Part shown: positions 3,426 through 57,470 of the stretch, piece by piece
Numbering within the stretch: position 1 is the first letter of the stretch
Layout: each line of letters starts with the position of its first letter
Origin: a virus
Length of the DNA: 64,000 nt
Direction: 5' to 3' (one strand)
Virus record (IMG/VR): IMGVR_UViG_3300045988_081423
Program-made: the position numbers and the translations under genes
The notes under the pieces: model-generated
What the model saw: the letters and a program-made list of their open reading frames with translations, nothing else
What the model was told of the DNA's origin: nothing
Databases searched by the model: none

Positions 3426-4085
3426 TTAAATATATCCATTAAAGTAATCATCAACAAATTTCTGTAATGTATCATAGGCCGCACCATCTTGGTGTGAATA
3501 CAATTCATCAAGAGCATCAGTCAAATCCTGTCTATCATAAGAATTGTCCTTGCGTTGGTTGTACTTATCACTGGTATAATTATACCAAGCAGTAATCATC
3601 TTGTCCACGGCCATATTCTTTAGCTTGCTTTCACCAATATCTTCATAATTATAAACGGTGTGCATAATATATGTTATGTCGTCAATCTGTTCCTGTGTTA
3701 AATTAAAGGTGTATGGAACGCTACTGTCTTTATCTTCAATATAAAATTTAACAAAGATATACCAATCAGTCGTGTCTTCCTTCACGCAAAAATCTTTATC
3801 CCATTTCTGATTCAAAGCTTTTGTAAGATTTCTACGAACGCAATTTTCATATCCATTTTCTTCAACATTATCATAGAATTGTTTAATGATGTTCTTATAT
3901 CTTTCGACAGCTACATCAACACAGCTATTATCCCAAGCATCTCTTTCATCATGGTAACTATAACAACCACAACGATAATTATTTGTTCCTATTGGCGCAA
4001 CTTCCCAACGAAATTGGCAGTCTGACTCAAATTTAATATCAAGATAAAGTGTCTTCGTATCAAAAATCCTCCAATTCTTTCTCAT
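3426..4085 (-). CDS. hypothetical protein, tandem paralog A
   Basis: Shares the blocks LYLD.(K/E)F, W...P.GT, YK..I..F.DNV, KFYI(E/D) and T.EQ with the neighbouring gene. The start was moved to an internal ATG (MRKNW) to limit overlap. Confidence 0.55.
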   Translation of the reverse strand: MRKNWRIFDTKTLYLDIKFESDCQFRWEVAPIGTNNYRCGCYSYHDERDAWDNSCVDVAVERYKNIIKQFYDNVEENGYENCVRRNLTKALNQKWDKDFCVKEDTTDWYIFVKFYIEDKDSSVPYTFNLTQEQIDDITYIMHTVYNYEDIGESKLKNMAVDKMITAWYNYTSDKYNQRKDNSYDRQDLTDALDELYSHQDGAAYDTLQKFVDDYFNGYI

Positions 4086-5344: not shown

Positions 5345-5848
5345 TTATTCACAATATAACTTAACTAAACCGTCTCTTAGTGTCTCTTTTAAATCAATTA
5401 CTCTTTGATTTCTACTCCCACGCCATTTTAGAGTAATATCATGCTGAGATTTAATATATTCCCCATCTACTAAGACATCAATATATTTAACAATCTCTTG
5501 AGTATCACTTCTATTCATTACTTCCTCATACTCATATCCAGTCCAACACCAAATATCTTTTTGAGGGAACTTTTCTTTTACTAATTTGACAAGGCGTGTG
5601 AGTTCTGGAATATTCTCTTTCTTTAGTGGGTCTCCACCACTAAGAGTAAGACCAGAAATATAATCATGATTTAGAGAATTAAGAATCTCATTTACTGTGT
5701 CATTAGTAAACTTGCTCCCGTAATTGATGTCCCAAGTTTCAGGATTTTGACATTCATCACAACAATGGTCACAACCACTCACCCAGAGAACAACCCTTAC
5801 TCCCTCTCCATTTGCAATGTCGTATTTTGTTATCTTAGCATAATTCAT
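5345..5848 (-). CDS. nrdG: anaerobic ribonucleotide reductase activating protein (radical SAM)
   Basis: 167-aa ORF with the N-terminal Cys cluster GCDHCCDECQN and LSGGDP. Its start overlaps the nrdD stop. Confidence 0.85.
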   Translation of the reverse strand: MNYAKITKYDIANGEGVRVVLWVSGCDHCCDECQNPETWDINYGSKFTNDTVNEILNSLNHDYISGLTLSGGDPLKKENIPELTRLVKLVKEKFPQKDIWCWTGYEYEEVMNRSDTQEIVKYIDVLVDGEYIKSQHDITLKWRGSRNQRVIDLKETLRDGLVKLYCE

Positions 5849-8049
5849 TACTGGACTCCTAGATGAACAACTCGCTCTTTAATCTCTTGTGTGCGACCTT
5901 GATTCCAGTCATTAGTACCAAGATAACCACAAGTTCTACGCACGATGTTCATTTTTGATTTATCACGATTTTTACAATTTGGACATTCCCAAACTAGCTT
6001 ACCATCATCATCTTTTACGATTTGGATTTCTCCGTCATAACCACAGACCTGACAGTAATCACATTTGGTATTTAGTTCTGCATACATAATGTTGTCATAA
6101 ATAAACTTGATTACAGAGAGAACAGCCTCGACATTATTATTCAAGTTAGGTATTTCTATATAACTTATGGCACCACCCGGAGATAGTTTCTGAAATTCGC
6201 TTTCAAATTTCAGTTTTGTAAAGGCATCAATCTTTTCGGTTACAACAACATGATAAGAGTTTGTAATATAATTTCTATCTGTAATACCCGGAATAACACC
6301 AAAACGCCTCTTTAGGCACTTAGCAAACTTGTATGTAGTGGATTCGATTGGGGAGCCATACAAACTATAATCAATGTTTTCAGAGGCTTTCCATTCATTA
6401 CACTTATCATTCATGTGTTGCATGATTTCAAGTGCGAACGGTTTTGCTTCATCACTTGTATGACTCTTGCCAGTCATAGCAAGAACGCATTCGTAGAGAC
6501 CAGCATATCCTAGACTAATGGTTGAATAACCGTCATACAGGAGCTTATCAATCTTCTCTCCTTTCTTTAGACGAGCAAGACCTCCATGTTGCCAGTGAAT
6601 TGGAGATACATCTGATAGAGTACCAAGAAGTCTATTATGGCGAATCTGTAGCGCCCTGTGACACAACTCAAGACGTTCGTCAAAAATCTTCCAGAATTTA
6701 TTAAAATCTTTGTTTGCACTTAAACCGACATCTGAAAGATTAATAGTAACAACGCCTTGATTAAAACGTCCGTAATACTTCTTTCCCTTAACCCAGTTAT
6801 TAGCATTCGCTAAATTCTCTGTCGTGCGGTCAGGAGTTAGGAACGAGCGACACCCCATACAGGGGAAGCAATCACCCTTATATTCCAGCATTTTCTTTTC
6901 TGAAATATAATCTGGAACCATACGCTTTGCTGTACATTTAGCGGCAAGCTCTGTTAGATAATAATACTTATCTCCCTCATGGATATTATCTTCTTCTAGT
7001 ACATAAAGAATCTTTGGGAATGCAGGAGTAATCCATACACCCTGTTCATTTTTAGTTCCCTCAATTCTTTGCTTTAGAACCTCTTCAATGAGCATTGCGA
7101 AGTCGTCTTTTTCTCTACCATCCTTTACTTCATTTAAATAAAGGAAAATAGATACAAATGGTGTCTGCCCATTAGTCGTCATTAAAGTATTAATTTGATA
7201 CTGAATTGTCTGAACTCCGCGTTTAATTTCTTCTTTTAGACGACCCTCTGTAATCTCATTAATCTGTTCATCCGTAGCATTTGAATTTAACAGAGCAACC
7301 TCTTCCATTACTTGCTTTCTGATTTTCTTTCTGCTAACATCAATAAATGGAACAAGATGCGCTAACGATTCGCTCTGTCCCCCATATTGATTGCTTGCTA
7401 CTTGTGCCATCACCTGAGTCGCAATATTGCAAGCAGTTGCAAAACTATGAGGTTTTTCAATTAGAGTACCGTTAATCACAGTACCATTTTGAAGCATATC
7501 TTCCAGATTGATTAAACAGCAGTTGTGCATCCGCTGAATAGCATAGTCAGAGTCATGAAAATGAATCAAACCTTGCTCATGTGCTTCACGAATGTCCTTT
7601 GGAAGAATCAGACGATTTACAATATCACGGCTTACTTCACCAGCAATATAATCACGTTGCGTAGCTGCAATTTTAGGATTCTTATTACTATTTTCTTGAA
7701 TTACGTCTTCATTTACGCCATCAACAATAGACATGATTTTGCCATCAGTCGTATTTCCGTTTCTAGCAAGCTGGCGCTCATAACGATAACGAATATACGT
7801 TTTTGCGACATCATAATAACCGCGTTGCATCAGAAGTGACTCAATTGTATCTTGAATATTTTCGACAGATACGGCGCAATCTTGTGCTTTAAAATTATTA
7901 TATACTTCTGTGGCGATTGTCTGAATTGCAATCTGCGGCATTGCTTTCCCACCGCTTTTTTCTACTTCGTCGCTTGCTTTTTGAATTGCAAGCGTTATCT
8001 TTCCTTTTTGGAACTTGTCTTCACGACCATCACGCTTAATTACATTCAT
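5848..8049 (-). CDS. nrdD: anaerobic (class III) ribonucleoside-triphosphate reductase
   Basis: 733-aa ORF with an N-terminal ATP-cone (VIKRDGREDKF), a C-terminal Zn ribbon (CDYCQVCG ... CPNC) and the glycyl-radical motif RRTCGYLG. Confidence 0.92.
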   Translation of the reverse strand: MNVIKRDGREDKFQKGKITLAIQKASDEVEKSGGKAMPQIAIQTIATEVYNNFKAQDCAVSVENIQDTIESLLMQRGYYDVAKTYIRYRYERQLARNGNTTDGKIMSIVDGVNEDVIQENSNKNPKIAATQRDYIAGEVSRDIVNRLILPKDIREAHEQGLIHFHDSDYAIQRMHNCCLINLEDMLQNGTVINGTLIEKPHSFATACNIATQVMAQVASNQYGGQSESLAHLVPFIDVSRKKIRKQVMEEVALLNSNATDEQINEITEGRLKEEIKRGVQTIQYQINTLMTTNGQTPFVSIFLYLNEVKDGREKDDFAMLIEEVLKQRIEGTKNEQGVWITPAFPKILYVLEEDNIHEGDKYYYLTELAAKCTAKRMVPDYISEKKMLEYKGDCFPCMGCRSFLTPDRTTENLANANNWVKGKKYYGRFNQGVVTINLSDVGLSANKDFNKFWKIFDERLELCHRALQIRHNRLLGTLSDVSPIHWQHGGLARLKKGEKIDKLLYDGYSTISLGYAGLYECVLAMTGKSHTSDEAKPFALEIMQHMNDKCNEWKASENIDYSLYGSPIESTTYKFAKCLKRRFGVIPGITDRNYITNSYHVVVTEKIDAFTKLKFESEFQKLSPGGAISYIEIPNLNNNVEAVLSVIKFIYDNIMYAELNTKCDYCQVCGYDGEIQIVKDDDGKLVWECPNCKNRDKSKMNIVRRTCGYLGTNDWNQGRTQEIKERVVHLGVQ

Positions 8050-8080: not shown

Positions 8081-8299
8081 TTAATCTTCTTTTAATTCTT
8101 GTTGAGCTAGTGCAACATTTGCCCACATAGTACATTCTTTGAGCTTTTCAAATGCAAGCTGCTTACTCTTACCCTTTGGAAGCTCACTTAGAATTTGACT
8201 TAGCTGATACGCTTCCTGAGAAATATCTTCATTCAGTTCACGGCTCTTATCTGAAAATTCTACTGAGTAAAATAAACTACTATCAAGCGACAATAGCAC
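8081..8299 (-). CDS. hypothetical protein, first gene of the leftward operon
   Basis: 72-aa ORF with an AAAGGAG RBS. The true start is probably the TTG at 8293. Confidence 0.5.
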   Translation of the reverse strand: MLLSLDSSLFYSVEFSDKSRELNEDISQEAYQLSQILSELPKGKSKQLAFEKLKECTMWANVALAQQELKED

Positions 8300-9164: not shown

Positions 9165-10841
9165 TTGTCAAAAATTGACCTATTCTATACTCTGAAATTA
9201 AACACGTCTGATATTTACGAACAAATTGCAAAAAATGGTTGTGTCGAAACCGATTTTAAAACAGCAAAGAATGCTGGTTGGGTAGTTGCTCTTGGTGATA
9301 ATCAACTACTAAGATTTATTCGTCAGATTAAGGACAAACCATTTGATAAAGAAAAGGTTCAAACTCTTTATGATAGGCGCAATATTCTAAAGCAAGACAA
9401 GAGTTCTAAGAAGAACGCAAGAGAAATTACAAAGATTCAGAACGAAATCAATGAACTGCTATTTGTTCCAGACCTTGTGACAGTTAGAACTGACACAACG
9501 CAGAAGGATTATAAGCAGCTATGCAAGACTGGATTCTCTGTTAAATTTAAAGTGAATGATGTAGAGTATGTAACAAAGTATAAGCGTTTATGTGCTGGCG
9601 CTGGTCAATTGAGAAAGAACTCTGCTAATTTTGTAAATGCAGAAATTTATGACCAGTTACTCAATATTATGCTTTGTGGTCTTGATGCAAAAAGCATAGG
9701 AAAGATTAATCTTGCTAAATTCGGAGCTTATCTTGCACTATCTACTTCTGCCACTAGAGTTGTTAAAACACCAAGAATTTGTGTTGTTGACGATTATGAA
9801 TATCCTTTGAAAGACCAAGTTGTTGATTGGATTTTCAAAAATGAAAAAGGCGAAGACGATATCAGAACCGAAAAAATTGATTTTACAATGAATGCTTTCG
9901 ACGGCGCTGGTATGGTCTGTCCTGAAATGGCTGAGAGATGGCAACAGGATTTAGAGCTTGACTATTTACCATCTAGTTTTATTGTGAGGGCAGCGTGGTT
10001 CAAAGGTCTCTGCTCAATTTTTGACTTTAGACGTTTTGCTCATGAGATAGCACATAAAGATACGATTACGGACATTTATGGGGTAACATATAATATTGAT
10101 GAAATTGACGTTATAGCTGGCTCATCAATGTTCAAACTTCATAAATGTTATCCTAATTTTCAAGTCTATCAGAGTTACTTTAAGCGTTACGGTCATGTCT
10201 TTGGGGTAGCAAGAGTATCTAAGAAAGCATCAAACCAACTTAGTACCCTCAATTATCAATATATTCAGAGCAATGATTTTACAGAAGAGTCAATTAAGAA
10301 CCTAGCAAATCCTACCATTGATTGGCTTCAAAAAGTAATGTCATGTGACCCGCTTTATGCTTCTCTTATGATGATTGGATGTCATGATAGAGATACACTA
10401 GAGCAGATAGAGAACAGCCTTGAGTCTCCAATCGCTAAATGTCTATTATATAATACGGATATATTAAATGATAGCTATGCCAAAAGTAAAGTAATGCGTC
10501 TAGTTCGTAAGAAGATAGACCAAGCAAAAATTGGTAAAATTTATGTTGAGGGTTCTTATGATTTTTTGATTCCAGATTTGTATGCTATGTGTGAACACGC
10601 ATTTGGCATGGAAGTACATGGGCTGCTACCTCCAAAATGTATGTACTCAAAACGCTGGGTAGATAAAGGAGCAAAGGTTGTAAGCACTCAACGTAGTCCT
10701 TTAGTTGCCCCTGCTGAAAATCAGCTGCTTAATGTTTATTCTGATGATAAATGTAAGGATTGGTTTGGGTATTTGGAGTGGGGAAACGTATATAGTATTT
10801 GGGATTTGACAATTATTAGTCAATCTGATGCAGATTTTGAT
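9165..10841 (+). CDS. single-subunit two-barrel RNA polymerase (YonO/RdRP-like), exon 1
   Basis: Ends ...TQRSPLVAPAENQLLNV...IISQSDADFD. Joined to exon 2 this gives DADFDGD, the Mg-binding motif of two-barrel RNAPs. The stop 9 nt later lies in intron sequence. Confidence 0.75.
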
Positions 10842-11789
10842 AAATATTAACTGTCCACAACTAAATTGTGAATTGTAGCGAACTAGCAAATGCTAGGTGT
10901 GTGATTGACGTTTAGGAATCGTAGGAAATGACGATTAGCAATCATACTAACAGGGAAACGCTAAGTCTTATGATATGCCAATCCTGTGCATTAAAGCGAA
11001 TTATAAATTTAAGAGAAAGGAGGTTTACTATGAAATATATAAATATTGATACAGAAGGTTTTTATGATATGAAAGACTTTGATGGAGAAGAGTGGAAAGA
11101 TTTAGCTGGATTTGAAGAATATTATAAAATTTCAAATTATAGCAGAATCAAAAGAAAGCCTAGGTCTTGGAGGTCTGGACGTAAGGGTGGCGCTTATAAA
11201 ACTCTTGGTTGGGGCATGGTTAAGCAACGTAGACTAAAAGGTGGATATGTAAAAGCCACTTTATGTAAGGATGGGGATAAAAGAAGCTATTCCGTCCATG
11301 TTCTTGAAGCGAAGACGTTCGTGCCAAATCCAAATAATTTACCTGTTGTAAACCATAAAGATTTAAACAAAGATAATAATTCCGCAGAAAATCTTGAATG
11401 GACGACATACTCTGAAAATACAAAACACTGGATTGAAAATACAGGTTACGACTTTAAGGGACATAAATTTGCAAAGAAATTAACGCAAGAACAAGAAATA
11501 CAAATTAAAGAATTTAAACAGAAAAACATGAGTATGACAACAAGACAGATTGCAAATGCGCTTGGTTTTACTTATAATCAGGTAAGAAGAGTTTTAAAAA
11601 TTTATAATTTGCTTTGATGTTAAACGACTATCCTTTAAGCTCGTCTGCTAAAATAAAGAGCAATAGGAGTAGGGCTGAGTGAAATTCTCAGTGGGTGAGA
11701 ACCCCTTAAATCGAAGTGCTACACATAGAAGATATAGTCTAATCCCCTTGGCATAGCCAGCAAATATCGGGAAACCGAGGGTATAAATG
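10842..11789 (+). mobile_element. group I intron (IA2-like core) carrying an HNH homing endonuclease
   Basis: It splits one codon-level motif, follows an exon U and ends in G. Conserved core blocks are AACGACTATCC (11623), CAATAGGAGTAGGGC (11661) and AAGATATAGTCT (11729), shared with the introns at 16951 and 51756. Confidence 0.75.
11030..11617 (+). CDS. intron-encoded HNH homing endonuclease
   Basis: Own RBS (AAAGGAGG). YKISNYSRIKRK and VNHKDLNKDNNSAENLEWTTYSENTKH form the HNH_3/NUMOD pattern, with a C-terminal HTH. Confidence 0.85.
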   Translation: MKYINIDTEGFYDMKDFDGEEWKDLAGFEEYYKISNYSRIKRKPRSWRSGRKGGAYKTLGWGMVKQRRLKGGYVKATLCKDGDKRSYSVHVLEAKTFVPNPNNLPVVNHKDLNKDNNSAENLEWTTYSENTKHWIENTGYDFKGHKFAKKLTQEQEIQIKEFKQKNMSMTTRQIANALGFTYNQVRRVLKIYNLL

Positions 11790-12935
11790 GGTGATATCAG
11801 CCTTACTTCTGATAATGAATATTTGGTAAACGCAATCAATCCAGATTTACCAATTATCACCTATGAAAAACAGAAAGTGAAGGCTCAAAAAATCAATTTT
11901 GATAATTTAGGTTCTTTTGATGTAAAGAGTTTCGACAGTCCTATTGGAGGTATTACGAATCTTGCAAGCAATCTTTATGCAATGAAAGATTTGTTTCCAA
12001 AAGATTCTAAAGAGCATCTTGAAATCGAAAAACGTATTCGTCTATTACGTCGGTGTCAGGGAGATGCTATCGACCACGCTAAAGGGGCTGTTTTTAAAAG
12101 CTACCCCAAGTATTGGTCACACCGGCAGAAGTATATCCCTATCACTGATGATATGACCGACGAACAGAAACAAGAAATTCAAAAACAAAATGAAGAAATT
12201 AAGTTCAATAATAGCATCTGCTGTGATAAGAAAACCTACTTTTTTGGTTATGTCTATCCAAAAGAAATGGCAAGACTCAAGCATTATAAGAAAAAACAAG
12301 GAGACCTCTGCCGTAAGAATTTTGGTTGTAAACTAAAAGACCTAAAGCAAAAACAAGATAAAACAGTAGAAGAAAAGCAATTCCTGCGTAATTATTACAA
12401 GTATATACCTCTGTTTAACTCTAACTGCACGATGAATAATCTGGCTAGATATGTAGAAGATTATGAATTTAAAGAGAATAAATCTAGTAAGTATTTTGAC
12501 TATTCTTACCTAATGTCTAACAAAGACAGAGAATTTAAGAAGAATATCTGCAAGCAGATTCAAGATGTCATTCATAAGTTCCAGCATAATTATCCTATTC
12601 TTCTAAAGAAGATTGGTCATGACCGTGATTGGGGTATTGAGGATGCTAATACCCTCGGTTCTGATAGAGAATCTTTCTTTGACGGTTTCTTTGATTATTA
12701 CAAGAACGAACTTATGAATATTCTATCCAATGAAGAAGAACTTGTTGATTATATCATTTATGTTTATTATGAACAATGTAAGTCTGCCGACAAATCTCTT
12801 CTTTGGGAACTGTATTCAGATGTCGTTCTAAATAATGTCAAAAATAATTCAGACCATTATTATAAGATTGTTGAGTCCGCAGATGGTCAAGAGTTCTTTG
12901 GCAAGAAGTTTGTTTTGCAGGAGGTAGCTAAATGA
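11790..12935 (+). CDS. single-subunit two-barrel RNA polymerase, exon 2
   Basis: In frame with exon 1 after splicing, starting GDISLTSDNEY. There is no RBS before the ATG at 11787, which lies in the intron 3' end. Confidence 0.75.
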   Translation, partial: GDISLTSDNEYLVNAINPDLPIITYEKQKVKAQKINFDNLGSFDVKSFDSPIGGITNLASNLYAMKDLFPKDSKEHLEIEKRIRLLRRCQGDAIDHAKGAVFKSYPKYWSHRQKYIPITDDMTDEQKQEIQKQNEEIKFNNSICCDKKTYFFGYVYPKEMARLKHYKKKQGDLCRKNFGCKLKDLKQKQDKTVEEKQFLRNYYKYIPLFNSNCTMNNLARYVEDYEFKENKSSKYFDYSYLMSNKDREFKKNICKQIQDVIHKFQHNYPILLKKIGHDRDWGIEDANTLGSDRESFFDGFFDYYKNELMNILSNEEELVDYIIYVYYEQCKSADKSLLWELYSDVVLNNVKNNSDHYYKIVESADGQEFFGKKFVLQEVAK

Positions 12936-13687
12936 TTTTTAATGAATACGAAAGAGCTGCCGAGATAGATGAGAAGCAAAAATTCTCAGCGGATATTATG
13001 ACAGATGGTATTCTTCTCGCTAGGTTCTATAAAACAAATGGTCTTAACAGAGAAGAGACGCAAGAAAAGATTAAAACGATTCTCTTTAAATTAGATGGTT
13101 GCTTTACCGATAAGTTCAAGGAAAAATCTTTAAGGGATATTATGTCTGGGTTTGATTCTTTTGAACTTATGGATAATGAGCCAGTATATTTTTATAAAGA
13201 AGAAATGGATATTATTAAACAGCTAAAGAATAAGACCGCAAGAAAAGTTTTGTTCGCTATGTTGTATATCCGTAAGGCTTCTGGTGAGAACGAGTTTGAA
13301 GCAGAAGCAAAAGACATCAATAGACTTTGCGTAAAGAGAATTTATCCGAACAGTCTTTATTTAGCATATCATGAGTTAAAAGAACTTGGATATGTTAAGT
13401 ATACGAACTTTAAAGGAGAGAATAAAACAGAGATTGTTTATCCCGCTCTAAATATTCAGTATACTTCTGAACCTGTTATTGTGATTCGTGATAAGCATAA
13501 TATAATGAATTATTATTGGAACTATGTCGGAGAAGGCAAATTTGCTATTTGCAAGAACTGCGGTAAATTAGTTCCGGTCACTTCATTTCATGTTGATTAT
13601 TGTGAAAAGTGTGCAAAAGAGAAGTACCTAGAGAAAAATATAAAATACAATAGGAAACGCAACAATTCCAAAACAACGACCGAGTAA
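12932..13687 (+). CDS. hypothetical protein with C-terminal zinc ribbon
   Basis: 251-aa ORF with CKNCG ... CEKC. Confidence 0.6.
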   Translation: MIFNEYERAAEIDEKQKFSADIMTDGILLARFYKTNGLNREETQEKIKTILFKLDGCFTDKFKEKSLRDIMSGFDSFELMDNEPVYFYKEEMDIIKQLKNKTARKVLFAMLYIRKASGENEFEAEAKDINRLCVKRIYPNSLYLAYHELKELGYVKYTNFKGENKTEIVYPALNIQYTSEPVIVIRDKHNIMNYYWNYVGEGKFAICKNCGKLVPVTSFHVDYCEKCAKEKYLEKNIKYNRKRNNSKTTTE

Positions 13688-15773: not shown

Positions 15774-15850
15774 CGCAGAATAGCCCAATCAGGTACGGCG
15801 CTTGGTTCATACCCAAGAGATTCTTCGTTCAAATCGAAGTTCTGCACCCA
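15774..15850 (+). tRNA. tRNA with anticodon CAT (Met, initiator-like or Ile2), CCA encoded
   Basis: 77-nt cloverleaf. Acceptor GCAGAA/TTCTGC with a C1-A72 mismatch, U8, D-arm with GG loop. Anticodon stem CTTGG/CCAAG with loop TTCATAC, 5-nt variable loop, T-arm CTTCG-TTCAAAT-CGAAG, then C-CCA. Confidence 0.75.
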
Positions 15851-16950: not shown

Positions 16951-17785
16951 GTGGGCTAACACCATATAACCCAAATAGCATTTTTCGTTTTGTCGAACGG
17001 ATGTAATTAGCTGAGTTTTTATTAAACTCGTAAGTAAAAAATACTAATTATGTTAACGGGGGAGTTTCTAAGACGCAATCCCGTGGGAAGGAAATTATAC
17101 GATGAAAGAATTTAGAAAAGTTCCTAGTTTAAAGTTTCTATACGAAATCAGTCAGGATGGTATTCTTCGTAATGTCAAGTCTAAAAAAGAGACTGCTTTT
17201 GAACCAGATAAGAATGGATATTACAGATGTACTATTCATAATAAAAGTATTGCTGATTCACCAAAACATTTTCTCAGGCATAGACTTGTTGCTGAATGTT
17301 GGTGTAATATTCCAGAAAGATTGGAAGATTACCCAATCAATAAACTACAAGTAAATCATATTGACGGAGATAAATCTAATAATAATTGCAAAAATCTTGA
17401 ATGGGTTCTCCCGTTTGAGAATGTTCGTCATGCTGTAAAAAATAATCTTTGGTATGAAAGTGAAAAATTTACAGAGCAGAAACATGAGAAGAAACCGATT
17501 ATGTGTATAGAAACTGGCGTTGTTTTTGAATCTTCTTACAAAGCAGCAGAATGGATTTGTGAAACTACTGGAAAATCTGCAAAGTATTTCAATATGTCAA
17601 ACCATATTCGTGAAGTTGCTAGAGGCAAGAAGTGGAAGAAAACAGCCTATGGATACCATTGGAAATTCGTATAAATTAAATCTGTACAGACTATCTCCTT
17701 AATAGGAGAGTAAGGGTTCTATTGACACGAATCTTGAAAAAGTGCTACCGCTTTTGCGGTAAGATATAGTCGATTAATTATAATG
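16951..17785 (+). mobile_element. group I intron carrying an HNH homing endonuclease
   Basis: Core blocks CAGACTATC (17687), AATAGGAGAGTAAGGG (17701) and AAGATATAGTC (17761) match the other introns. It ends in G before exon 2. Confidence 0.65.
17102..17674 (+). CDS. intron-encoded HNH homing endonuclease
   Basis: LYEISQDGILRNVKSKK and VNHIDGDKSNNNCKNLEWVLPFENVRH form the HNH_3/NUMOD pattern. Confidence 0.85.
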   Translation: MKEFRKVPSLKFLYEISQDGILRNVKSKKETAFEPDKNGYYRCTIHNKSIADSPKHFLRHRLVAECWCNIPERLEDYPINKLQVNHIDGDKSNNNCKNLEWVLPFENVRHAVKNNLWYESEKFTEQKHEKKPIMCIETGVVFESSYKAAEWICETTGKSAKYFNMSNHIREVARGKKWKKTAYGYHWKFV

Positions 17786-49934: not shown

Positions 49935-51755
49935 ATGGCACAAGCACAAAGCGATTTATTTAGTTTTCTAATTACACCAGAATTTGATACAAAAGATGTT
50001 ACAGATAGCGCACAAATACTACAAAAAGAGCTTGAAAAAGTTGCAGAAAAAATATCAATACAAATAAGTAAAGCAATGGGAAAGGGTTTTTCGTTCCCAT
50101 CTGGTTTTCAACCAAAAGATATTAATGAAGTAACAAAATATATCGAAACCCTTGGGGGCAGCGTCAAACGTGTTGGAACTGTCATAACTTCTTCTTTCAA
50201 AGATGCAAGCGGAACAGTAACAACCCTAAAACAAAACATCAACGACGCTATAAATTCTGCTCAGTTGGCAAGCCTACAATCTATGAGTGGAAATCCTAAG
50301 AATATAGATATTATAAATAAACAGTATGCTCAACTAAGAAGTTCTAGTGCTACATACACTGGAACGGAACAGGTTAAGCAACAAAACGAATTAGAACAAC
50401 AGATTATTAAATCTTTGCAAGAGCGATATAGCTTAGAGGGTAAAATATCAGACGCAAAAGCAAGCGGAAACAAGATTACAGAAACTTATTATACGCAACT
50501 AAGAGATATTGCTGTTGCAGAAGAACAACAATTAGAATCACAATATAAAGGTTCTCAAACACGAATAAATTCCGTGAAACAGCAGTTGTCTCTTGAACAA
50601 CAATTGCGACAACAAAAGGCACAATCTACTGCGGAAGAAAATAAAGCTGTTGAGGCCATAAAACAATACGCAAAACAATATCAGACTGTCAAGCAATTAG
50701 AGAGCAAAGGTCAACAAAACACTCAGGCTTATACTGATGCTAAAAATGCTTTACAGCAGTTAACAAATACTTTAACAACGTATGGTGTTAAAGTTGTAAC
50801 AAGCTCCGACGGCACAACAAAACTTGTAGCACAACAAAATTCAATGGCTGACAGCTCCAATAAGGTTAAAACAGCGTTGGACAATGCCAATGGCAGTTTA
50901 GTAAAAACTGATACTGCACAAAATTCCCTATCGCAATCTATTCAGTCTAGTGTAGAGAACTTTATTAAATATCAGGTGGCTATGGAAGCCATCAACAAAA
51001 TCACTAGCGAATTCACATCTGCAATTTATGATATGAACGAAGCCATGACACAGGTTCGTATGGTTACAATGGGTAGCTATGAAGATACTGTGGCATTGGC
51101 TGATAGTTATACTAAATTGGCAAAGCAACTTGGTACTACTACGACCACAGTTGCAGAAGGTGCAGATGCTTGGTTAAGACAGGGTTATAATGCTCAAGAA
51201 GCAATGGAGATGCTAAAACAGTCAACTACGTTGGCTGTTGTTGGTCAATTGGACGCAAGCGAGGCGACTGACCAACTCACTGCAATCACAAAATCCTATA
51301 ATGTAGCTGTAGACGATACAAGCAAAATCGTAGATAAACTTGTGCAAGTAGACCTTTCCTACGCGGCCAGCACAGGTGAAATTTCTACAGCATTACAGAA
51401 AGTCGCTAGTTCTGCTGGACAGGCGGGGTTAGGACTTGATAAACTAATCGGTCTAATTACTATTTCTGAGGAAAAGACTCGACAAGCGCCAGAAGTTATT
51501 GGGTCTGCTTGGCAGAGTATCATCTCGCGTATATCAAAAATCACGGCAAAAGTAGATTTGGATGACCTCGTTGATGAGCAAGGTATAACCCACACAATCA
51601 ATGATGCAGATAAAGTTCTATCCAAATACGGAATTACACTAGTTGATACAAACGGTAAAATGCGCGAAATTGGTACTGTTCTTGATGAAATCGGTGCAAA
51701 ATGGAACAGCATGAGCACTCTTGAACAGAACCAGTTGGCTTATGTTGTCGCCGGT
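49935..51755 (+). CDS. tape measure protein, exon 1 (3' end within about 5 nt)
   Basis: Gln/Ala-rich coiled coil followed by the conserved TMP core (...LGTTTTTVAEGADAWLRQGY...EQNQLAYVVAG). Exon end GCCGGT can pair with GCTGGC at 51765-51770 (P1 with a U-G pair). Confidence 0.7.
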
Positions 51756-53138
51756 TCGATAAGTGCTGGCGTAAAACGTACTTAATTGACGGGAAACCCC
51801 TTTAGAGTCTTGACAACTAAGTTATTATAGTGATATAATAATGGTTGGAAGTAATCAATCCAAGTATAGTAAAATAGTCAAGAATTGGGCAACCCGCAAC
51901 CAAGCAACTATGAAAATAGTTGAAGGCTCAACGACTATCCAGTTAGCGTTAAATTAACGCAATAGGAGTAGGGCGCAATTCGCTACTGCGTGGGTGAAAA
52001 CCCCTTAAATCGAAATGGTACGGCATATCATAGATATGCAAGATATAGTCTATTCTCATGCAAAAGCATGAGCATTTTTATGTTATATTGAGGTTATAAA
52101 TGGGAAAAGTAATCAGATGGACAGACGAAGAAATTCAATTATTAAAAGAGCATTATCCTAATGATTCATGGGATAATATTTTATCTTTTATTCATAGAGA
52201 AAAAGGAAATATTATTACCAAAGCAAGTAAACTTGGAATCGTAAGGAATAGTCCAAATAAAAAGATTGAATGGTCTGACGAAGAGGTTGAAATTCTTAGA
52301 GGTGTTTATCTAACAACAAGGCTAGAAGACATTCCGAGACTGCATTTACCAAATAAATCCAAAGATGCCATTATTAGAAAAATGGGAGAACTAAGGTTGC
52401 TAAAATCAAAACCTTGGACACAAGGAGAAATAGAAAAATTTATCAAATTATATCCAAACACAGACAATAAAGAACTTTGTAAAATATTTGGAAGAACAAA
52501 GAATGCCATAATCAACGAATCTCAAAAACTTAATTTATATAAAAGCAATAGATTCACAGAGGAAGATATTGCTTTTATAAGAAACAACTATCTTAAAATG
52601 TCAGATTTTGAAATCGGAGAAATTCTCGGCCATCATTGGAGAGTCGTAAAGGATAAGCGTTTGTCTTACGGATGGAAACATTCTGAACCAATCTTAGGAC
52701 AAGGATATAAAAGTATTGTTGAATTTTGTCGTAAAAGCACACCCGGTTGGAGAAATGAGAGTATTGCATATTGTAATCATAAATGTGTAATCACAGGAGA
52801 AGAATTTGACGACGTTCATCATCTTTATTCTGCGAATCTCATTATAAAAGAAGTCGCAGACATTATTCCTCTTGAACCAAACGCTTCTCCCGAAATGTAT
52901 GACGAGGAATATCTTGGAGAGATTCTTGACTTATTTGATAAGAAACAGCGAGAGTATGGACACGGAGTTTGTTTGACAAAAGAAATTCATACGATGTTTC
53001 ATAAAGAATATGGATTCGGGAATAATACAAAAGGACAGTTTCTTGATTTCGTAGATAAACATAGTTTTAAATTATTAGTCGATATAACATAATATACAAA
53101 GATAGCAACTTTGTGAAATAAATAACAAAACAAGACAG
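51756..53138 (+). mobile_element. group I intron in tmp carrying an HNH-type endonuclease in its 3' part
   Basis: Core blocks AACGACTATCC (51930), CAATAGGAGTAGGGC (51960), GTGGGTGAAAACCCCTTAAATCGAA and AAGATATAGTCT (52040) are nearly identical to the rnap intron. Confidence 0.7.
52100..53092 (+). CDS. intron-encoded endonuclease: three W(T/S)DEE Myb/SANT-like repeats plus C-terminal HNH-like motif
   Basis: WTDEEIQLL, WSDEEVEIL and WTQGEIEKF repeats. C-terminal CVITGEEFDDVHHLYS ... CLTKEIHTMFHKEYG. Confidence 0.65.
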   Translation: MGKVIRWTDEEIQLLKEHYPNDSWDNILSFIHREKGNIITKASKLGIVRNSPNKKIEWSDEEVEILRGVYLTTRLEDIPRLHLPNKSKDAIIRKMGELRLLKSKPWTQGEIEKFIKLYPNTDNKELCKIFGRTKNAIINESQKLNLYKSNRFTEEDIAFIRNNYLKMSDFEIGEILGHHWRVVKDKRLSYGWKHSEPILGQGYKSIVEFCRKSTPGWRNESIAYCNHKCVITGEEFDDVHHLYSANLIIKEVADIIPLEPNASPEMYDEEYLGEILDLFDKKQREYGHGVCLTKEIHTMFHKEYGFGNNTKGQFLDFVDKHSFKLLVDIT

Positions 53139-56100
53139 CGCAACGTCTTTATTGCTGCTATGGAGGATTATAACCGTGTATTAGAAGCAACTGAAGTTGC
53201 AGAAAATGCAAACGGTGTTGCCGCTGAAAAGATGACGGTTTATAACGAGTCTCTTGAAGCTGCACAAAATAGATTAACCGCAAGTGTTCAACAATTTGCA
53301 CAGGATTCTAACCTTGATAGAACCCTTGCATTAGCCTACGACGGTCTGTCCAAAATCGTAGAAATTCTAAATATTTTACTAAATAAAATTCCAGTTTTAA
53401 GTCCACTAATTAAAGCCCTTGGTGTTGCTCTAGCAACAGCTTTCGCAGGCAATATACTTAAAAATATATGGGAGACATCCAATTTAATCGGGCAACTTCC
53501 AAGTCTTGCGATGACTGCCACAAGTGCGATTGGGGCGCTAAATACAACATTATTTACAATAGGTTCTGTTGCAGTACCAATATGGGGTGTAGTAGCAGCC
53601 ATTACCGCCATTGGAGCTGTTGCGAAAGTTGCATGGAACGCTTGGAAAGATGCTCAACCAGAGGCACAAATCAAAAAAGCAAACGAAGCCTTGCAAGAGA
53701 GCCAACAGAGTCTTGATGAGACAAATAATAAAATAACTGAAATTAACAAACAAATCTCAGAAATCAACTCTAAAGGTACTTTAACTTTAGCAGATGAGCA
53801 ACAAAAAGAGAACCTTCAAGAGCAACTTGATTTGCTCGAAGAAATTAAAACAACACAAGAAGCTATAAATAAAGAAAAATCTGCACAGGCATTATCTGCC
53901 GAACAAGCAAAAGCTAAAAAAATGACACCATATAGTTCAGAAGATGTGTCTCAGTATCAAGCAGGGCTTCAATCTACACAAAATTATGCGACCGCAATAT
54001 CTACTGAAAATATAAACGAATTGATTGCGGCATATCAACAACTTGAGAAAGAAAAGAAAAATCTGAACTCAGCAGACGAAGATTATGCAGAACAATTAAA
54101 AACCAACGAACAACTAACATCTTCTTTTACCACAAAGTTGTTAGAGCAAAAACAGTCTTACCTAGATGAGATGAAGGCTCTTTCAAATTTAGGAGATACA
54201 AGTTCAGAAACATATAAGGCGTTACAGCAAGCTGTTGACATGATAAATGTCACACTTGACCCGTCTAATTTTGAAACACTTAAAGTCCAAAATCTAATTG
54301 ACACATCTGGAATTGAAGACAAAATTAAAGAGGCTGTTCAGGCTGGCGATAAAGCCGGTGGCGAAATGGCTACGGCATACGCTAAGAGTTTCGCAGAAAA
54401 AATATTAAAAGATACTAGCATGAAACAATCGTTTGCTGAGGCAATGGGTGTCAACGTAAACGAGTTAAATATAGACAATTTAACACAAGAAATCCTCAGC
54501 AAATTCCAACAGATGTATAATAATATTTCTGATGGATACAATGATGTTGTACAGAATGTTTTTAGTAAAACAGATGTTGTTAGTGCTTATGCTAGTATTC
54601 TTGAAAAAGTAAACGAAAAGACAAAGGTTTTGTCAAAAGCATACAAAGAATTGACGAAACAGGGTAGCTTAACGACTGACACAACTCAAAAACTTATCGA
54701 ACTATACCCAGACCTTGCAAAACAACTTGATTTTACAAGTGGTAAAATTACTCTCAATGTAAACGTTCTTAAAGACCTCTATAATGCAGAATACAAGTCC
54801 GCAGAAGCAACGGTTAAGGCAGAAATTCAAAAAACAAAAGCTACTATTGCTGGCGTAGAAGCAAGAATTGCGGCACTAGAAGCAGAGAAACAAAAACTTC
54901 TGCAAACTTTAGATGCGGGTGTTTTAAGCGGTCGAGATGAGGCGTTTGCCGAAAAGCAAATGTTGCTTCTTGAGCAATCTGGTTCTAAAGCTAATGCGAA
55001 TTTGGAAAAAGCGGAAGAGCATTTAAAAGATTTAAATAGTTTACTTGGTCTTGTTCAAAACACTGCAAAATCTGGGCTAGGCTCCGGTACAAAGGATAGC
55101 TCTTCTGGGAAATCTGGTAAATCTGCCGCTGATAAAGCTGCAAAAGAATTTGAGAATGAAATCAAAGAAAAGGTTCAAAACCTAAAGAGTATTGTACAGT
55201 TGTATTCTGAGAATGCTAACTGGGATGACCCAACTGTCATCAAAGAGTTCCAAGACAGATACGACAAAATCTTAAATGAAGTCATAAACGACCCAAAAGC
55301 CAGAAAAGTTCTAGCTGATGCGTTTAATCTTGATATAAGCAATATGCCAGTTGAACAACAAATTCAAGAACTAACAACGCTATGGCAAAAACAAGCTGGT
55401 ACAATTCAAGAATCGTATCAAAAACTTCTAAAGAATCTAGCTAAAGAAGATTTGAGTTCTGCCAAGGCTGTTATAGAAAAATATAAAAATGGTATTTATG
55501 GCGCTTGGAGTTCTGACGAAGCACTGAATGCAGCAAAAGCTGATTATCAGAAGTTTATTGACAAAATCACCAATGACGCAGATTACAGAGCTGCTATGGC
55601 AGAAGCGTTAAACCTTGGGGATATTAGTGGAGAACCAGTAGAGAAACAAGTAGAAGCTGTTATAAACGCCTTACTAAAGTCTACTGGTACACTTGATAAC
55701 ACCCAGCAAGACCTATATGATGACGCTTCTAAGAATATCAAAGCATTACAAGATGAAATCGAGGACATGATTGATACAGCAATCGGTTTGCTTGAAAAGG
55801 CTGGCGATTTTCTGTTTGATATGTTGGATAAGATTTCTGACAGATATGATGCTCAGATTGACAATCTTGATAAGATTTCTGACGAACTTGATGACCAAAA
55901 AGATGCCTTTGAAGATAAGATTGACCAGCAAAAAGAACTCCTGAAACTTCAAAAAGAAGAGATGGATAACGCTGACGAGCTTGCTGAAAAGAATAAATCT
56001 ATTGCAGATATTGATGCCCAATTGATGGAATTGCAATATGACAATTCAGCGGAAGCACAGGCTAAACGTCTTAAACTTCTCGATGAAAGAGCACAAAAAG

Positions 56101-57470
56101 AAAAAGACCTTGCTGATTGGCAAAAAGATAACGATTATAATACCAAGATTGACGCCCTTGATAAAGAAAAATCAGAATATGAAAAGACAATTGAAGCAGA
56201 AAAGAAAGCAATAGAAGCACAAAAACAAACTTTGCAAGATGCTCAGAAACAATTTGAAACTACTCTGGGGAATATCCAAAATGGTTTCAATACATTTATT
56301 AAAATTCTTAGTAGTGATTTTGTCAAGAACCTAATTAGCAAAGCACTAATTGGCACTGGTCAAGATACAGTGACACAATTGCTTACTGGTTATAATAAAT
56401 TATTTGGTACTGGTATTGATTCTGACGTAACTGGGATAATCAAAGAAGGATATAAAAGTCTAGCAGATATTGGTAGTGACACGCTAAATAATGTTTCAAA
56501 TTATAATAACAGAATTGTCAAGAGTGCGACAAAAGGTATAAAAAGTATTATCAGCAATACGACAAATGGCGTTAAGTCTATTTTTGATTCCAGTAATGGA
56601 TTTATGAAAAGATTAACATCTAATGGTATATCTTCGCTAAATACGATTGGGACAAATGGCAAGGGAATTATTTCCAGTCTAGCTGGAACGGCAAATAGTT
56701 TACTGAGCAATTTGAATAGATTTGCCAGTGGGATAGGGCAGATTGCAACCAAAGGCATATCTGGTATATTCTCTGGTATTGGAGGAATGACTAGTGGAGT
56801 TGCAGGCGGTATGGGAGGCATTGGTTTAGCTGGTGCTGGCCTATCTAGCGCACTTCCAATCGCTGCAATAGGAGCGGGTGTTTTGTCTGGTGCTTTGGCA
56901 AATGTTAGTACATGGTACAATAACATCAAGCTCTGGAAAGACAAAGACAAATCTACTGGTAAAAAAATACTTGGAACAATCGGAAATCTGATACTCCCTT
57001 TCTTGCCCGGTGGTATGCTGATATCAGCCGGGAAAGCCCTATCTAGTCTATTTAAAAAACACCATACTGGTGCTGATTATGTAAAAAAACAGAATCCTAT
57101 GTTGGACAAAATGTTAGGACTCGGAAGTGACGAGACTGTATCCATTCTAAAAGTTGGAGAGGCTATTGTGCCCACATGGGCAAATGGAGCAAATAGTTCC
57201 GGCAGCAGTAATAGATTTACGGGAAGTCCATTTGGAAGTGCTGTAGACTCTGCCGTTAAAACCGCAAGAGTAAATACCAGAACGTACTCTAGTTCCAACA
57301 GCTCTTCTATTAATATCTCTATGCCTATTAATATTCAGGGAGACGCAGATGCTTCTACTGTAAACTCTTTGAGGAAAGAGGCAGACAACATTGTGAATAA
57401 AGTTCTAAAAACTATCAATAACCAAACTAGAATTGGTGGCTATAGAAATATAAAAGCAGCAACGATTTAA
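53139..57470 (+). CDS. tape measure protein, exon 2 (5' end within about 5 nt)
   Basis: The frame is open upstream of ATG 53160 (..RQRNVFIAAMEDY) and continues the TMP core. No RBS precedes the ATG. Long coiled coils, TM-like segments and Gly-rich regions are typical of TMPs. Confidence 0.75.
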   Translation, partial: RNVFIAAMEDYNRVLEATEVAENANGVAAEKMTVYNESLEAAQNRLTASVQQFAQDSNLDRTLALAYDGLSKIVEILNILLNKIPVLSPLIKALGVALATAFAGNILKNIWETSNLIGQLPSLAMTATSAIGALNTTLFTIGSVAVPIWGVVAAITAIGAVAKVAWNAWKDAQPEAQIKKANEALQESQQSLDETNNKITEINKQISEINSKGTLTLADEQQKENLQEQLDLLEEIKTTQEAINKEKSAQALSAEQAKAKKMTPYSSEDVSQYQAGLQSTQNYATAISTENINELIAAYQQLEKEKKNLNSADEDYAEQLKTNEQLTSSFTTKLLEQKQSYLDEMKALSNLGDTSSETYKALQQAVDMINVTLDPSNFETLKVQNLIDTSGIEDKIKEAVQAGDKAGGEMATAYAKSFAEKILKDTSMKQSFAEAMGVNVNELNIDNLTQEILSKFQQMYNNISDGYNDVVQNVFSKTDVVSAYASILEKVNEKTKVLSKAYKELTKQGSLTTDTTQKLIELYPDLAKQLDFTSGKITLNVNVLKDLYNAEYKSAEATVKAEIQKTKATIAGVEARIAALEAEKQKLLQTLDAGVLSGRDEAFAEKQMLLLEQSGSKANANLEKAEEHLKDLNSLLGLVQNTAKSGLGSGTKDSSSGKSGKSAADKAAKEFENEIKEKVQNLKSIVQLYSENANWDDPTVIKEFQDRYDKILNEVINDPKARKVLADAFNLDISNMPVEQQIQELTTLWQKQAGTIQESYQKLLKNLAKEDLSSAKAVIEKYKNGIYGAWSSDEALNAAKADYQKFIDKITNDADYRAAMAEALNLGDISGEPVEKQVEAVINALLKSTGTLDNTQQDLYDDASKNIKALQDEIEDMIDTAIGLLEKAGDFLFDMLDKISDRYDAQIDNLDKISDELDDQKDAFEDKIDQQKELLKLQKEEMDNADELAEKNKSIADIDAQLMELQYDNSAEAQAKRLKLLDERAQKEKDLADWQKDNDYNTKIDALDKEKSEYEKTIEAEKKAIEAQKQTLQDAQKQFETTLGNIQNGFNTFIKILSSDFVKNLISKALIGTGQDTVTQLLTGYNKLFGTGIDSDVTGIIKEGYKSLADIGSDTLNNVSNYNNRIVKSATKGIKSIISNTTNGVKSIFDSSNGFMKRLTSNGISSLNTIGTNGKGIISSLAGTANSLLSNLNRFASGIGQIATKGISGIFSGIGGMTSGVAGGMGGIGLAGAGLSSALPIAAIGAGVLSGALANVSTWYNNIKLWKDKDKSTGKKILGTIGNLILPFLPGGMLISAGKALSSLFKKHHTGADYVKKQNPMLDKMLGLGSDETVSILKVGEAIVPTWANGANSSGSSNRFTGSPFGSAVDSAVKTARVNTRTYSSSNSSSINISMPINIQGDADASTVNSLRKEADNIVNKVLKTINNQTRIGGYRNIKAATI

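Follow-up and report, generated by a model that had tools for sequence, protein, structure and literature searches.

A YonO-type phage RNA polymerase gene, probably interrupted by a mobile group I intron between two codons of its catalytic loop

Two reading frames of one polymerase gene

Positions 9165 to 12935 of a 64,000-nucleotide stretch of viral DNA (IMG/VR record IMGVR_UViG_3300045988_081423; the whole stretch is called the window below) hold two open reading frames (ORFs), both on the plus strand, which are the halves of one gene. The upstream ORF (9165-10850) begins with TTG and encodes 561 amino acid residues ending in IISQSDADFDKY and a stop codon; the downstream ORF (11787-12935) encodes 382 residues beginning MGDISL. 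With a slash marking each boundary, the DNA reads GCA GAT TTT GAT/AAA TAT TAA on the 5′ side and ATAAATG/GGT GAT ATC on the 3′ side, and joining T10841 to G11790 yields a product of 940 residues that reads S554-D-A-D-F-D559/G560-D561-I-S-L; the ligated RNA junction is predicted to be GCAGATTTTGAT/GGTGATATCAGCC, also written GATGCAGATTTTGAT/GGTGATATCAGCC. The principal features, with the evidence for each in parentheses, are:

9165 to 10841, plus strand: exon 1, RNA polymerase residues 1-559 (ORF, uninterrupted homologs, invariant columns)
Within exon 1, residues 139-152 (YKRLCAGAGQLRKN) and 243-250 (NAFDGAGM): N-terminal conserved blocks (invariant columns)
10692 to 10700, plus strand: R510-S511-P512 codons, the R-x-P element found ahead of the catalytic loop in two-barrel polymerases (invariant in 40 homologs; aligned with the RSP of YonO)
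10824 to 10841, plus strand: S554 D555 A556 D557 F558 D559 codons, the 5′ part of the DxDGD loop (S554, D555, D557, and D559 invariant)
10842 to 11789, plus strand: group I intron, 948 nucleotides (gap relative to an uninterrupted contig, Rfam fragments, homologous introns, covariation)
11030 to 11617, plus strand: predicted HNH homing endonuclease gene, 195 residues (Pfam, PHROG 59, I-HmuI structure)
11790 to 12935, plus strand: exon 2, residues 560-940 and stop codon (its G560-D561 start completes DFDGD)

Relatives sought in 5.8 billion proteins bear out the join, which an initial annotation of the window had proposed together with a spliced product of about 940 residues. The uninterrupted proteins P0001-P0007, each of 940 residues and 96-98% identical to the joined product, read SDADFDGDISL straight across the predicted junction, and further full-length uninterrupted relatives extend down to 42% identity. 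The P0001 junction reads IISQSDADFDGDISLTSDN, identical to the predicted ligated junction. The contig encoding P0001 (L008, an ENA gut metagenome contig whose gene order, nrdD, nrdG, polymerase, ClpP, and HU, is also that of the window) aligns base for base with the window polymerase gene, save for a single 948-nucleotide gap at exactly 10842-11789; the uninterrupted L008 target is TCTGACGCGGATTTTGACGGCGATATC, reading TCTGACGCGGATTTTGAC/GGCGATATC at the junction, and no alternative placement of the boundaries recreates the uninterrupted sequence. The 96-98% identical relatives, which read exactly across the junction, delimit the insert as positions 10842-11789 (948 nucleotides). An exact search of IMG/VR for the ligated junction as DNA gave no match: its records include no intron-less allele whose flanks are identical. 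Two PHROGs match the exon-1 part only or the exon-2 part only, which implies that other phage records are split likewise; UniProt lists the window-type halves as an "RNA dependent RNA polymerase" (561 residues) and an "uncharacterized protein" (382 residues), and the record of Clostridium phage c-st is annotated "YonO-homolog (N-ter only)" and "(C-ter only)".

The joined protein is homologous to YonO of Bacillus prophage SPbeta, a single-chain DNA-dependent RNA polymerase (RNAP; Forrest et al. 2017, PMC5467207). Specifically, i) a tblastn comparison with phage genomes finds SPbeta yonO at E 1e-29 and 27% identity in a single alignment over query residues 138-622, junction included; ii) the joined protein aligns with PHROG 8308 without a break over residues 7-917 (E 4e-102); iii) a four-way alignment places RSP and DADFDGD opposite RSP and DNDGD of YonO, and the latter motif opposite DFDYD in phage BUCT082 and DFDGD in Enterocloster phage PMBT24; iv) R510, S511, P512, S554, D555, D557, D559, G560, and D561 are invariant across 40 full-length homologs, as are the N-terminal blocks CAGAGQLR.N and NAFDG.G (C143, G145, G147, R150, N152, N243, D246, G247, and G249), which are candidates for the invariant basic and acidic residues of the second, beta-like barrel (Rpb2 K979, K987, and D837); and v) 14 of the 40 aligned homologs match the Pfam RNA-dependent RNA polymerase (RdRP) family PF05183, with a best E of 3.7e-20. 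The R-x-P segment that the initial annotation had placed before the motif is R510-S-P512, 45 residues upstream, and these residues are the equivalents of Rpb1 R446 and P448 (PMC2919709). The DxDGD loop itself (D557-F-D559-G-D561) is complete only after the join.

An AlphaFold2 model built on the 40-homolog alignment, whose first row was P0001 (98% identical to the joined protein), has a mean pLDDT of 87.9 and a pTM of 0.82. Compared with the PDB by Foldseek, the model matches plant RDR2 at E 1e-19 (best 1.3e-19) to 1e-14 and Neurospora QDE-1 at E ~1e-15, with RDR2/QDE-1 matches extending to 3e-13; then Thermus phage P74 gp62 (E 7.5e-6), Thermus phage P32 gp64 (E 5e-5), and crAss-like phi14:2 gp66 (E 2e-4), with multisubunit beta-prime at E above 0.1. 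The best structural matches, QDE-1 and RDR2 (PDB 2J7N, 7W82, and 7ROZ), share the two-barrel core and its DxDGD but only 12-14% sequence identity. YonO, crAss gp66, and QDE-1, the three comparisons singled out by the initial annotation, are all among the sequence or structure matches, and the condition under which it would have been refuted, no double-psi beta-barrel fold or homology, does not hold; together with YonO homology across the junction, PHROG 8308, and the RdRP-matching homologs, the predicted fold supports membership of the YonO/cellular-RdRP two-barrel family, as that annotation had held.

The likeness to YonO includes the neighborhood, in which a gene for an HU-like DNA-binding protein lies downstream of the polymerase, and the window's relatives are Firmicute-type phages; on the other hand, the SPbeta gene is uninterrupted, and the two proteins do not align past residue ~620. 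The function of the window enzyme is drawn by analogy with YonO: mutation of the YonO Asp triad abolishes activity, and YonO transcribes the SPbeta late genes (PMC5467207), suggesting that the window polymerase probably transcribes a subset of phage genes. The database label "RNA-dependent" carried by the exon-1 half probably misleads, given that its phage relative YonO uses a DNA template. Directly downstream of the polymerase lies a separate ORF (12932-13687), the start codon of which overlaps the polymerase stop codon (ATGA); its last 44 residues, with paired Cys-x2-Cys motifs, are 43% identical to the tail formed by the last 44 residues of YonO (pairwise E 1e-4). Since in SPbeta the tail is part of the polymerase chain, this ORF may encode a separate partner subunit.

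Group I structure of the insert and its endonuclease

The secondary structure of the insert is that of a group I intron, conserved and backed by covariation; P7.1/P7.2 extensions and two additional hairpins, lying between P3 and P4, mark its type. Its elements are:

10852 to 10855, plus strand: internal guide UGUC (read from the sequence)
10856 to 10870, plus strand: P2 hairpin CACAA/UUGUG (by eye, relatives have a hairpin of other sequence in the same place; outside the counted alignment)
10874 to 10880, plus strand: P3 5′ strand UGUAGCG, partner 11717-11723 (RNAalifold; three of seven pairs change on both sides)
10883 to 10947, plus strand: peripheral hairpins between P3 and P4, namely CUAGC/GCUAG (10883-10896), a 9-bp helix (10899-10907/10939-10947), and an inner hairpin (10917-10936) (compensatory changes in 15 of 20 pairs)
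10950 to 10987, plus strand: P4 (ACAGGG/UCCUGU; ACAGGGAAA...AAUCCUGU) enclosing P5 (Rfam fragment, covariation)
10989 to 11619, plus strand: P6/P6a, a 22-bp stem (10989-11010/11598-11619) with a 587-nucleotide loop holding the endonuclease gene
11626 to 11630, plus strand: P7 5′ strand GACUA, inside the conserved J6/7-P7 element AAACGACUA (11622-11630)
11631 to 11716, plus strand: P7.1/P7.2 extension CAAUAGGAGUAGGGC...CUUAAAUCGAAG (covarying helices)
11717 to 11723, plus strand: P3 3′ strand UGCUACA (RNAalifold, covariation)
11724 to 11728, plus strand: CAUAG in place of P8 (alignment with relatives)
11729 to 11739, plus strand: J8/7 and P7 3′ strand AAGAUA UAGUC (matches Rfam consensus AAGAUAUAGUC)
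11740 to 11789, plus strand: P9 domain, CCC/GGG closing UUGGC/GCCAG and CGG-GAAA-CCG, ending AUAAAUG (covariation)

The 5′ splice-site U is U10841 and the intron-terminal G is G11789. In P1 the guide pairs G10853 with U10841 (the U.G wobble), U10854 with A10840, C10855 with G10839, and U10852 with A10842; ACU at 10850-10852, upstream of the guide, can pair with exon-2 GGU as P10. The element GAU/...GUC, with the slash at the splice site, is kept in all five introns at this site (the alpha site, see below). The conserved J6/7-P7 and J8/7-P7 sequences AACGACUA and AAGAUAUAGUC are present as in the Rfam consensus, and a permissive Rfam scan returns two Intron_gpI fragments (10950-11025, 18.4 bits; 11560-11760, 14.2 bits). 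The two strands of the P6 stem form a 22-nucleotide repeat that is 91% complementary, the rest being G.U pairs.

Covariation was assessed in five homologous introns whose ORF loops were replaced by GAAA and which were trimmed by hand at the P6 stems; MAFFT-based trimming of the loops proved unreliable for alpha introns and was dropped. RNAalifold recovers a 7-bp long-range P3, P4, P5, P7.1, P7.2, P9, and three peripheral hairpins, to which the P7 pseudoknot (11626-11630/11735-11739) was then added; two manual proposals for P3 (UAGCA/UGCUA, then GUGU/ACAC) were abandoned for the covarying RNAalifold helix. Standard pairs fill 97.4% of 345 cells, and 37 of the 72 pairs have compensatory changes, a count drawn from only five sequences and a structure derived from the same alignment. 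None of 500 shuffles reaches any of these measures, and sliding the partners by 1-3 columns leaves 36-44% paired and 2-5 compensatory pairs. The P7 pair is compensated to GACCA/UGGUC in one relative (L039), and even near-identical copies of the window intron have C-G, U.G, and U-A variants at P3 pair 10879/11718. An intein was ruled out by the stop codon two codons past the junction, and a group II intron was rejected: the ORF-less relatives are only 284-346 nucleotides long, and neither a reverse transcriptase gene nor a domain V was seen.

ORF 11030-11617, in the P6 loop, is by its matches a gene for an I-HmuI-like HNH homing endonuclease. Its ATG is preceded by AGGAGG 8 nucleotides upstream, and its stop codon lies inside the P6 3′ strand; the product matches NUMOD4 (8.4e-10) and HNH_3 (1.1e-6) in Pfam, with weak C-terminal helix-turn-helix matches, PHROG 59 at E 7e-40, and the I-HmuI structure (PDB 1U3E) over almost its full length at E 1.2e-12. 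The ORF is intact in all six copies of the 948-nucleotide intron, where differences are mostly synonymous (17 nucleotides but 3 amino acid residues in L019). A second HNH-like coding region, apparently free-standing, lies at 17210-17512 of the window; over 102 residues it shares 28% identity with the endonuclease of the intron (E 6e-6).

The P7.1/P7.2 extension is also present in the Enterocloster phage intron and in a second intron of the window (73% identity to 51930-52021). This second group I intron (51731-53159; Rfam match at gathering over 51731-52072, 54.8 bits) splits the tape-measure gene between ORFs 49935-51785 (upstream, with a PhageMin_Tail domain) and 53160-57470, and contains an ORF of 330 residues (52100-53092) with no Pfam match.

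Homologous introns, mobility, and an insertion hot spot

Homologous introns occupy the same DxD/GD site in very distant hosts:

Enterocloster phage CB473P3 (L001), 2345-2777: 433 nucleotides, Rfam 39 bits, E 4e-8
Clostridium phage c-st (L003), 3576-3892: 317 nucleotides, Rfam 25 bits, E 1e-4
IMG/VR contig L040, 5968-6313: 346 nucleotides, Rfam 50.3 bits, at gathering; the closest ORF-less relative
IMG/VR contig L039, 5669-6601: 933 nucleotides, Rfam fragment only, 27.4 bits, E 0.005

ORF-less relatives were scored in Rfam in place of the window copy, whose match is split into fragments because of a 621-nucleotide ORF insert. The U/G boundaries, the weak Rfam fragments of the window copy itself, homology to 39-50-bit introns at the same site, and the covarying helices all agree with the group I assignment made in the initial annotation.

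The distribution of the intron among close relatives is patchy. PMBT24 is uninterrupted, yet its exon 1 is 99% identical to that of CB473P3. Six 948-nucleotide copies (the window, MT835481/L007, L013, L018, L019, and L032) are 97.9-99.7% identical in the intron, while the same pairs are 95-99% identical in exon 1 and 90-99% in exon 2; in comparisons with the window itself, exon 1 is 95.1-97.1% and exon 2 89.8-96.5% identical. An intron present in some close relatives, absent from others, and more conserved than its flanking exons is the sequence pattern expected of homing or recent lateral spread, consistent with the homing site proposed earlier. The nearest intron-less alleles have GAC as the D559 codon and, because this codon ends in C, cannot supply the splice-site U; alpha-site carriers have GAT in all cases. 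The cluster of exon-1 products has 674 member sequences, indicating that intron carriers are common.

When exons were mapped in 40 IMG/VR loci and three further contigs, five distinct insertion sites were found within the 18 nucleotides encoding S-D/A/D/F-D/G/D:

epsilon, between SD and A: L053
gamma, between SDA and D: L033, L034, L048
beta, between DAD and F: L014-17, L020-22, L030, L040-42, L051, L052
alpha, between DFD and G: the window type, L039, L040, L041, CB473P3, c-st
delta, between DFDG and D: L033, L034, L048, L053

All introns in this hot spot are preceded by T and end in G. Where two sites are occupied together, micro-exons remain between the introns: 6 nucleotides (TACGAT, encoding YD) in L040 (5666-6313) and L041 (5666-6316), with flanking introns of 39.5 and 50.3 bits in Rfam; 12 nucleotides (GACTTTGACGGT, DFDG) in L033 (5648-6217), with flanking introns of 44.7 and 58.5 bits; and 15 nucleotides (GCAGATTTTGACGGT, ADFDG) in L053 (4642-5195). 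Introns at the beta site have another ORF, which lies in the loop of P5 and has no Pfam match; by eye it was guessed to be GIY-YIG, a guess that Pfam did not confirm. Further insertions lie near residues 603/604 and 651-653 (L022, L029, L033-35, L039-43, L048, L052, and L053; none in the window), and Rfam calls several of these at gathering, L033 6517-6780 (68.4 bits) among them. L039 has four exon-mapping gaps, three of them group I by Rfam (one by a fragment only); relatives have up to four introns in the polymerase gene, and the window gene has one.

Split genes were also seen elsewhere. In L002 (SPbeta-like Bacillus phage Goe11), a 1290-nucleotide insert at 5459-6748 encodes a GIY-YIG/NUMOD3 protein after yonO residue 625, between genes annotated yonO_1 and yonO_2; Rfam at gathering calls no intron there. 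The anaerobic ribonucleotide reductase gene nrdD is called as two fragments in L051 (1-1625), with a GIY-YIG ORF between them, and in L052 (1-1480), with a 253-nucleotide gap and no ORF called; the window nrdD (5848-8049) is one intact ORF of 733 residues. Elsewhere in the neighborhood, a tRNA gene lies at window 15774-15847 (Rfam 53.1 bits), relatives having from one up to several tRNAs at the equivalent position, and a 70-residue gene of L008 (8715-8927), syntenic with window 8081-8299 (minus strand), has a weak precomputed match to the Acb2/Tad1 hairpin family PF24729, which hints that the 72-residue window ORF could encode an anti-defence nucleotide sponge.

Splicing, splitting, or decay

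We conclude that the locus, from a gut phage, is very probably one gene for a 940-residue two-barrel polymerase, interrupted by a 948-nucleotide mobile group I intron between the D559 and G560 codons. The primary transcript would fold, its guide UGUC pairing with exon GAU to form the splice-site U.G wobble; exogenous guanosine held in P7 would attack after U10841, the freed exon would attack after G11789, and the ligated mRNA would be translated into the full-length polymerase. An AGGAGG-ATG of its own would serve for translation of the endonuclease, which would nick or cut intron-less alleles in co-infecting phages at the conserved target, and repair would copy the intron in.

Several observations weigh against this conclusion. 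P8, which belongs to the universal core of group I introns, is absent from the window copy, where only five bases separate the P3 3′ strand from J8/7; P1 is short, with three exon bases and one intron base only; at the Rfam gathering threshold (50 bits) the window copy is not called; the joined protein itself has no match to PF05183 or any other Pfam family and no useful PDB sequence match, family membership resting on YonO homology, the homologs, and the predicted fold; and splicing of the window intron is inferred from DNA.

L039, L040, L041, and CB473P3 each have a 7-10 bp hairpin at the P8 position, different in sequence in each (CACCCCCUGUUGAGGGUG in L040), and the folding energy of this stretch is -0.4 kcal/mol in the window compared with -7 to -9 in the four relatives. 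The deletion is common to all six copies of the 948-nucleotide intron, and this P8-less form has diversified by ~2% in diverged exon backgrounds while the endonuclease gene and the exons have stayed open. We think it somewhat more probable than the contrary that the window intron, as a natural group I ribozyme lacking P8, still splices, which would be unusual; its many peripheral helices or a protein perhaps help it, and certain phage introns splice in vivo only (PMC11878797). In the intron 3′ end GAGGGTATAAATG (11774-11789; final bases GAGGGUAUAAAUG), GAGGG is followed after 5 nucleotides by an AUG in frame with exon 2, together resembling a ribosome-binding site and a start codon (AUG at 11787-11789), and it is this intron-terminal AUG that makes exon 2 look like an independent ORF. 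Other alpha-site introns end in AAAAG, AAAG, or AACG; two beta-site introns also end in AUG, where it is unable to act as a start, so that an intron-terminal AUG can arise by chance. The start-like sequence in the window may be a chance occurrence, or a route to exon-2 translation without splicing.

If the P8-less intron has decayed as a ribozyme, the enzyme could instead be split into one chain of residues 1-559 followed by KY and another of M followed by residues 560-940, the two assembling non-covalently. In such an enzyme the second chain would be translated from GAGGG...AUG, and DFD on one chain would have to meet GD on the other in the Mg-binding loop, which is unlikely. In its favor, P8 is absent only in this intron type; the 3′ end (GAGGGUAUAAAUG), unlike that of other alpha-site introns, holds a Shine-Dalgarno-like sequence and an in-frame AUG; and gene callers and public records already list two proteins. 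The break, however, would fall inside the metal-binding loop, between D559 and G560, and we know of no polymerase split between such loop residues; moreover, all six copies retain the remaining ribozyme core, the U/G boundaries, and the guide intact and unchanged, P3 has changed in a compensatory manner (C-G, U.G, and U-A) within the P8-less lineage, and the non-start AUG of beta-site introns shows that a chance origin is possible. We therefore regard a split enzyme as improbable. Slightly less probable still is a dead gene, in which the P8-less intron no longer splices, the polymerase is lost, and the lineage relies on the host RNA polymerase. The missing P8 would fit, and no second polymerase copy is found in the 64-kb window; but in all six diverged carriers each exon is an open, full-length frame, the 674-member exon-1 cluster shows such carriers to be common, every catalytic residue is kept across the family, and the SPbeta homolog is the late-gene polymerase (PMC5467207). 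As for two unrelated genes around a free-standing endonuclease gene, with the DFDGD join a coincidence, public annotation does keep the two ORFs separate and neither alone matches a Pfam family; this reading is nonetheless refuted, to the point where we give it almost no credence, by uninterrupted 940-residue homologs at 42-98% identity, by YonO and PHROG 8308 alignments that run across the junction, and by the exact 948-nucleotide gap relative to L008.

Essential phage genes are well-known hosts, at their conserved motifs, of mobile group I introns that carry HNH endonucleases. The DNA polymerase intron of Bacillus phage SPO1 carries I-HmuI, a homologous endonuclease likewise in a phage group I intron of a polymerase gene, although host gene and site differ in the window; and orf142 of Staphylococcus phage Twort contains multiple group I introns. 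Several introns per phage gene also occur in Bastillevirinae (PMC11878797), and to this likeness of several structurally related group I introns in one gene the relatives described here add a five-site cluster within 18 nucleotides and micro-exons, an arrangement for which a search of the open-access literature found no report in phages. Close in host gene are Pseudomonas phage PhiPA3, in which a group I intron with the HNH endonuclease gp210 interrupts the gene for a virion RNAP beta-like subunit (PMC11620839), and 201phi2-1, with a mobile intron in an RNAP gene (gp273/274; PMC2919709); in these phages, as in the window, a mobile intron lies in an RNAP gene directly after conserved catalytic-motif aspartates. 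The PhiPA3 gene encodes a beta-like subunit of the multisubunit enzyme of a jumbo phage, whereas the window gene encodes a single-chain YonO-type enzyme interrupted in the DxDGD loop of the beta-prime-like barrel; a competitive effect was shown for gp210. A search of open-access papers found no report of the window intron and none linking YonO-type genes to introns. The kind of element is therefore familiar, in a host gene for which that search found no earlier report; what is unusual is the P8-less ribozyme and, in relatives, the five-site hot spot with micro-exons.

YonO-type single-chain two-barrel polymerases occur widely among phages found in human gut samples and among those of gut clostridia, and the codons of their catalytic loop are favored by selfish introns. 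Many metagenomic entries of ~560 residues are the same split-gene artefact; recognizing the intron gives back a complete polymerase and puts right the tally of YonO-family members in gut phages. With five sites, at least two kinds of endonuclease, and micro-exons of 6-15 nucleotides, the relatives offer a natural system for studying intron competition and P1/P10 pairing on short exons, and a spreading intron that lacks P8 allows a test of how small the group I core can be.

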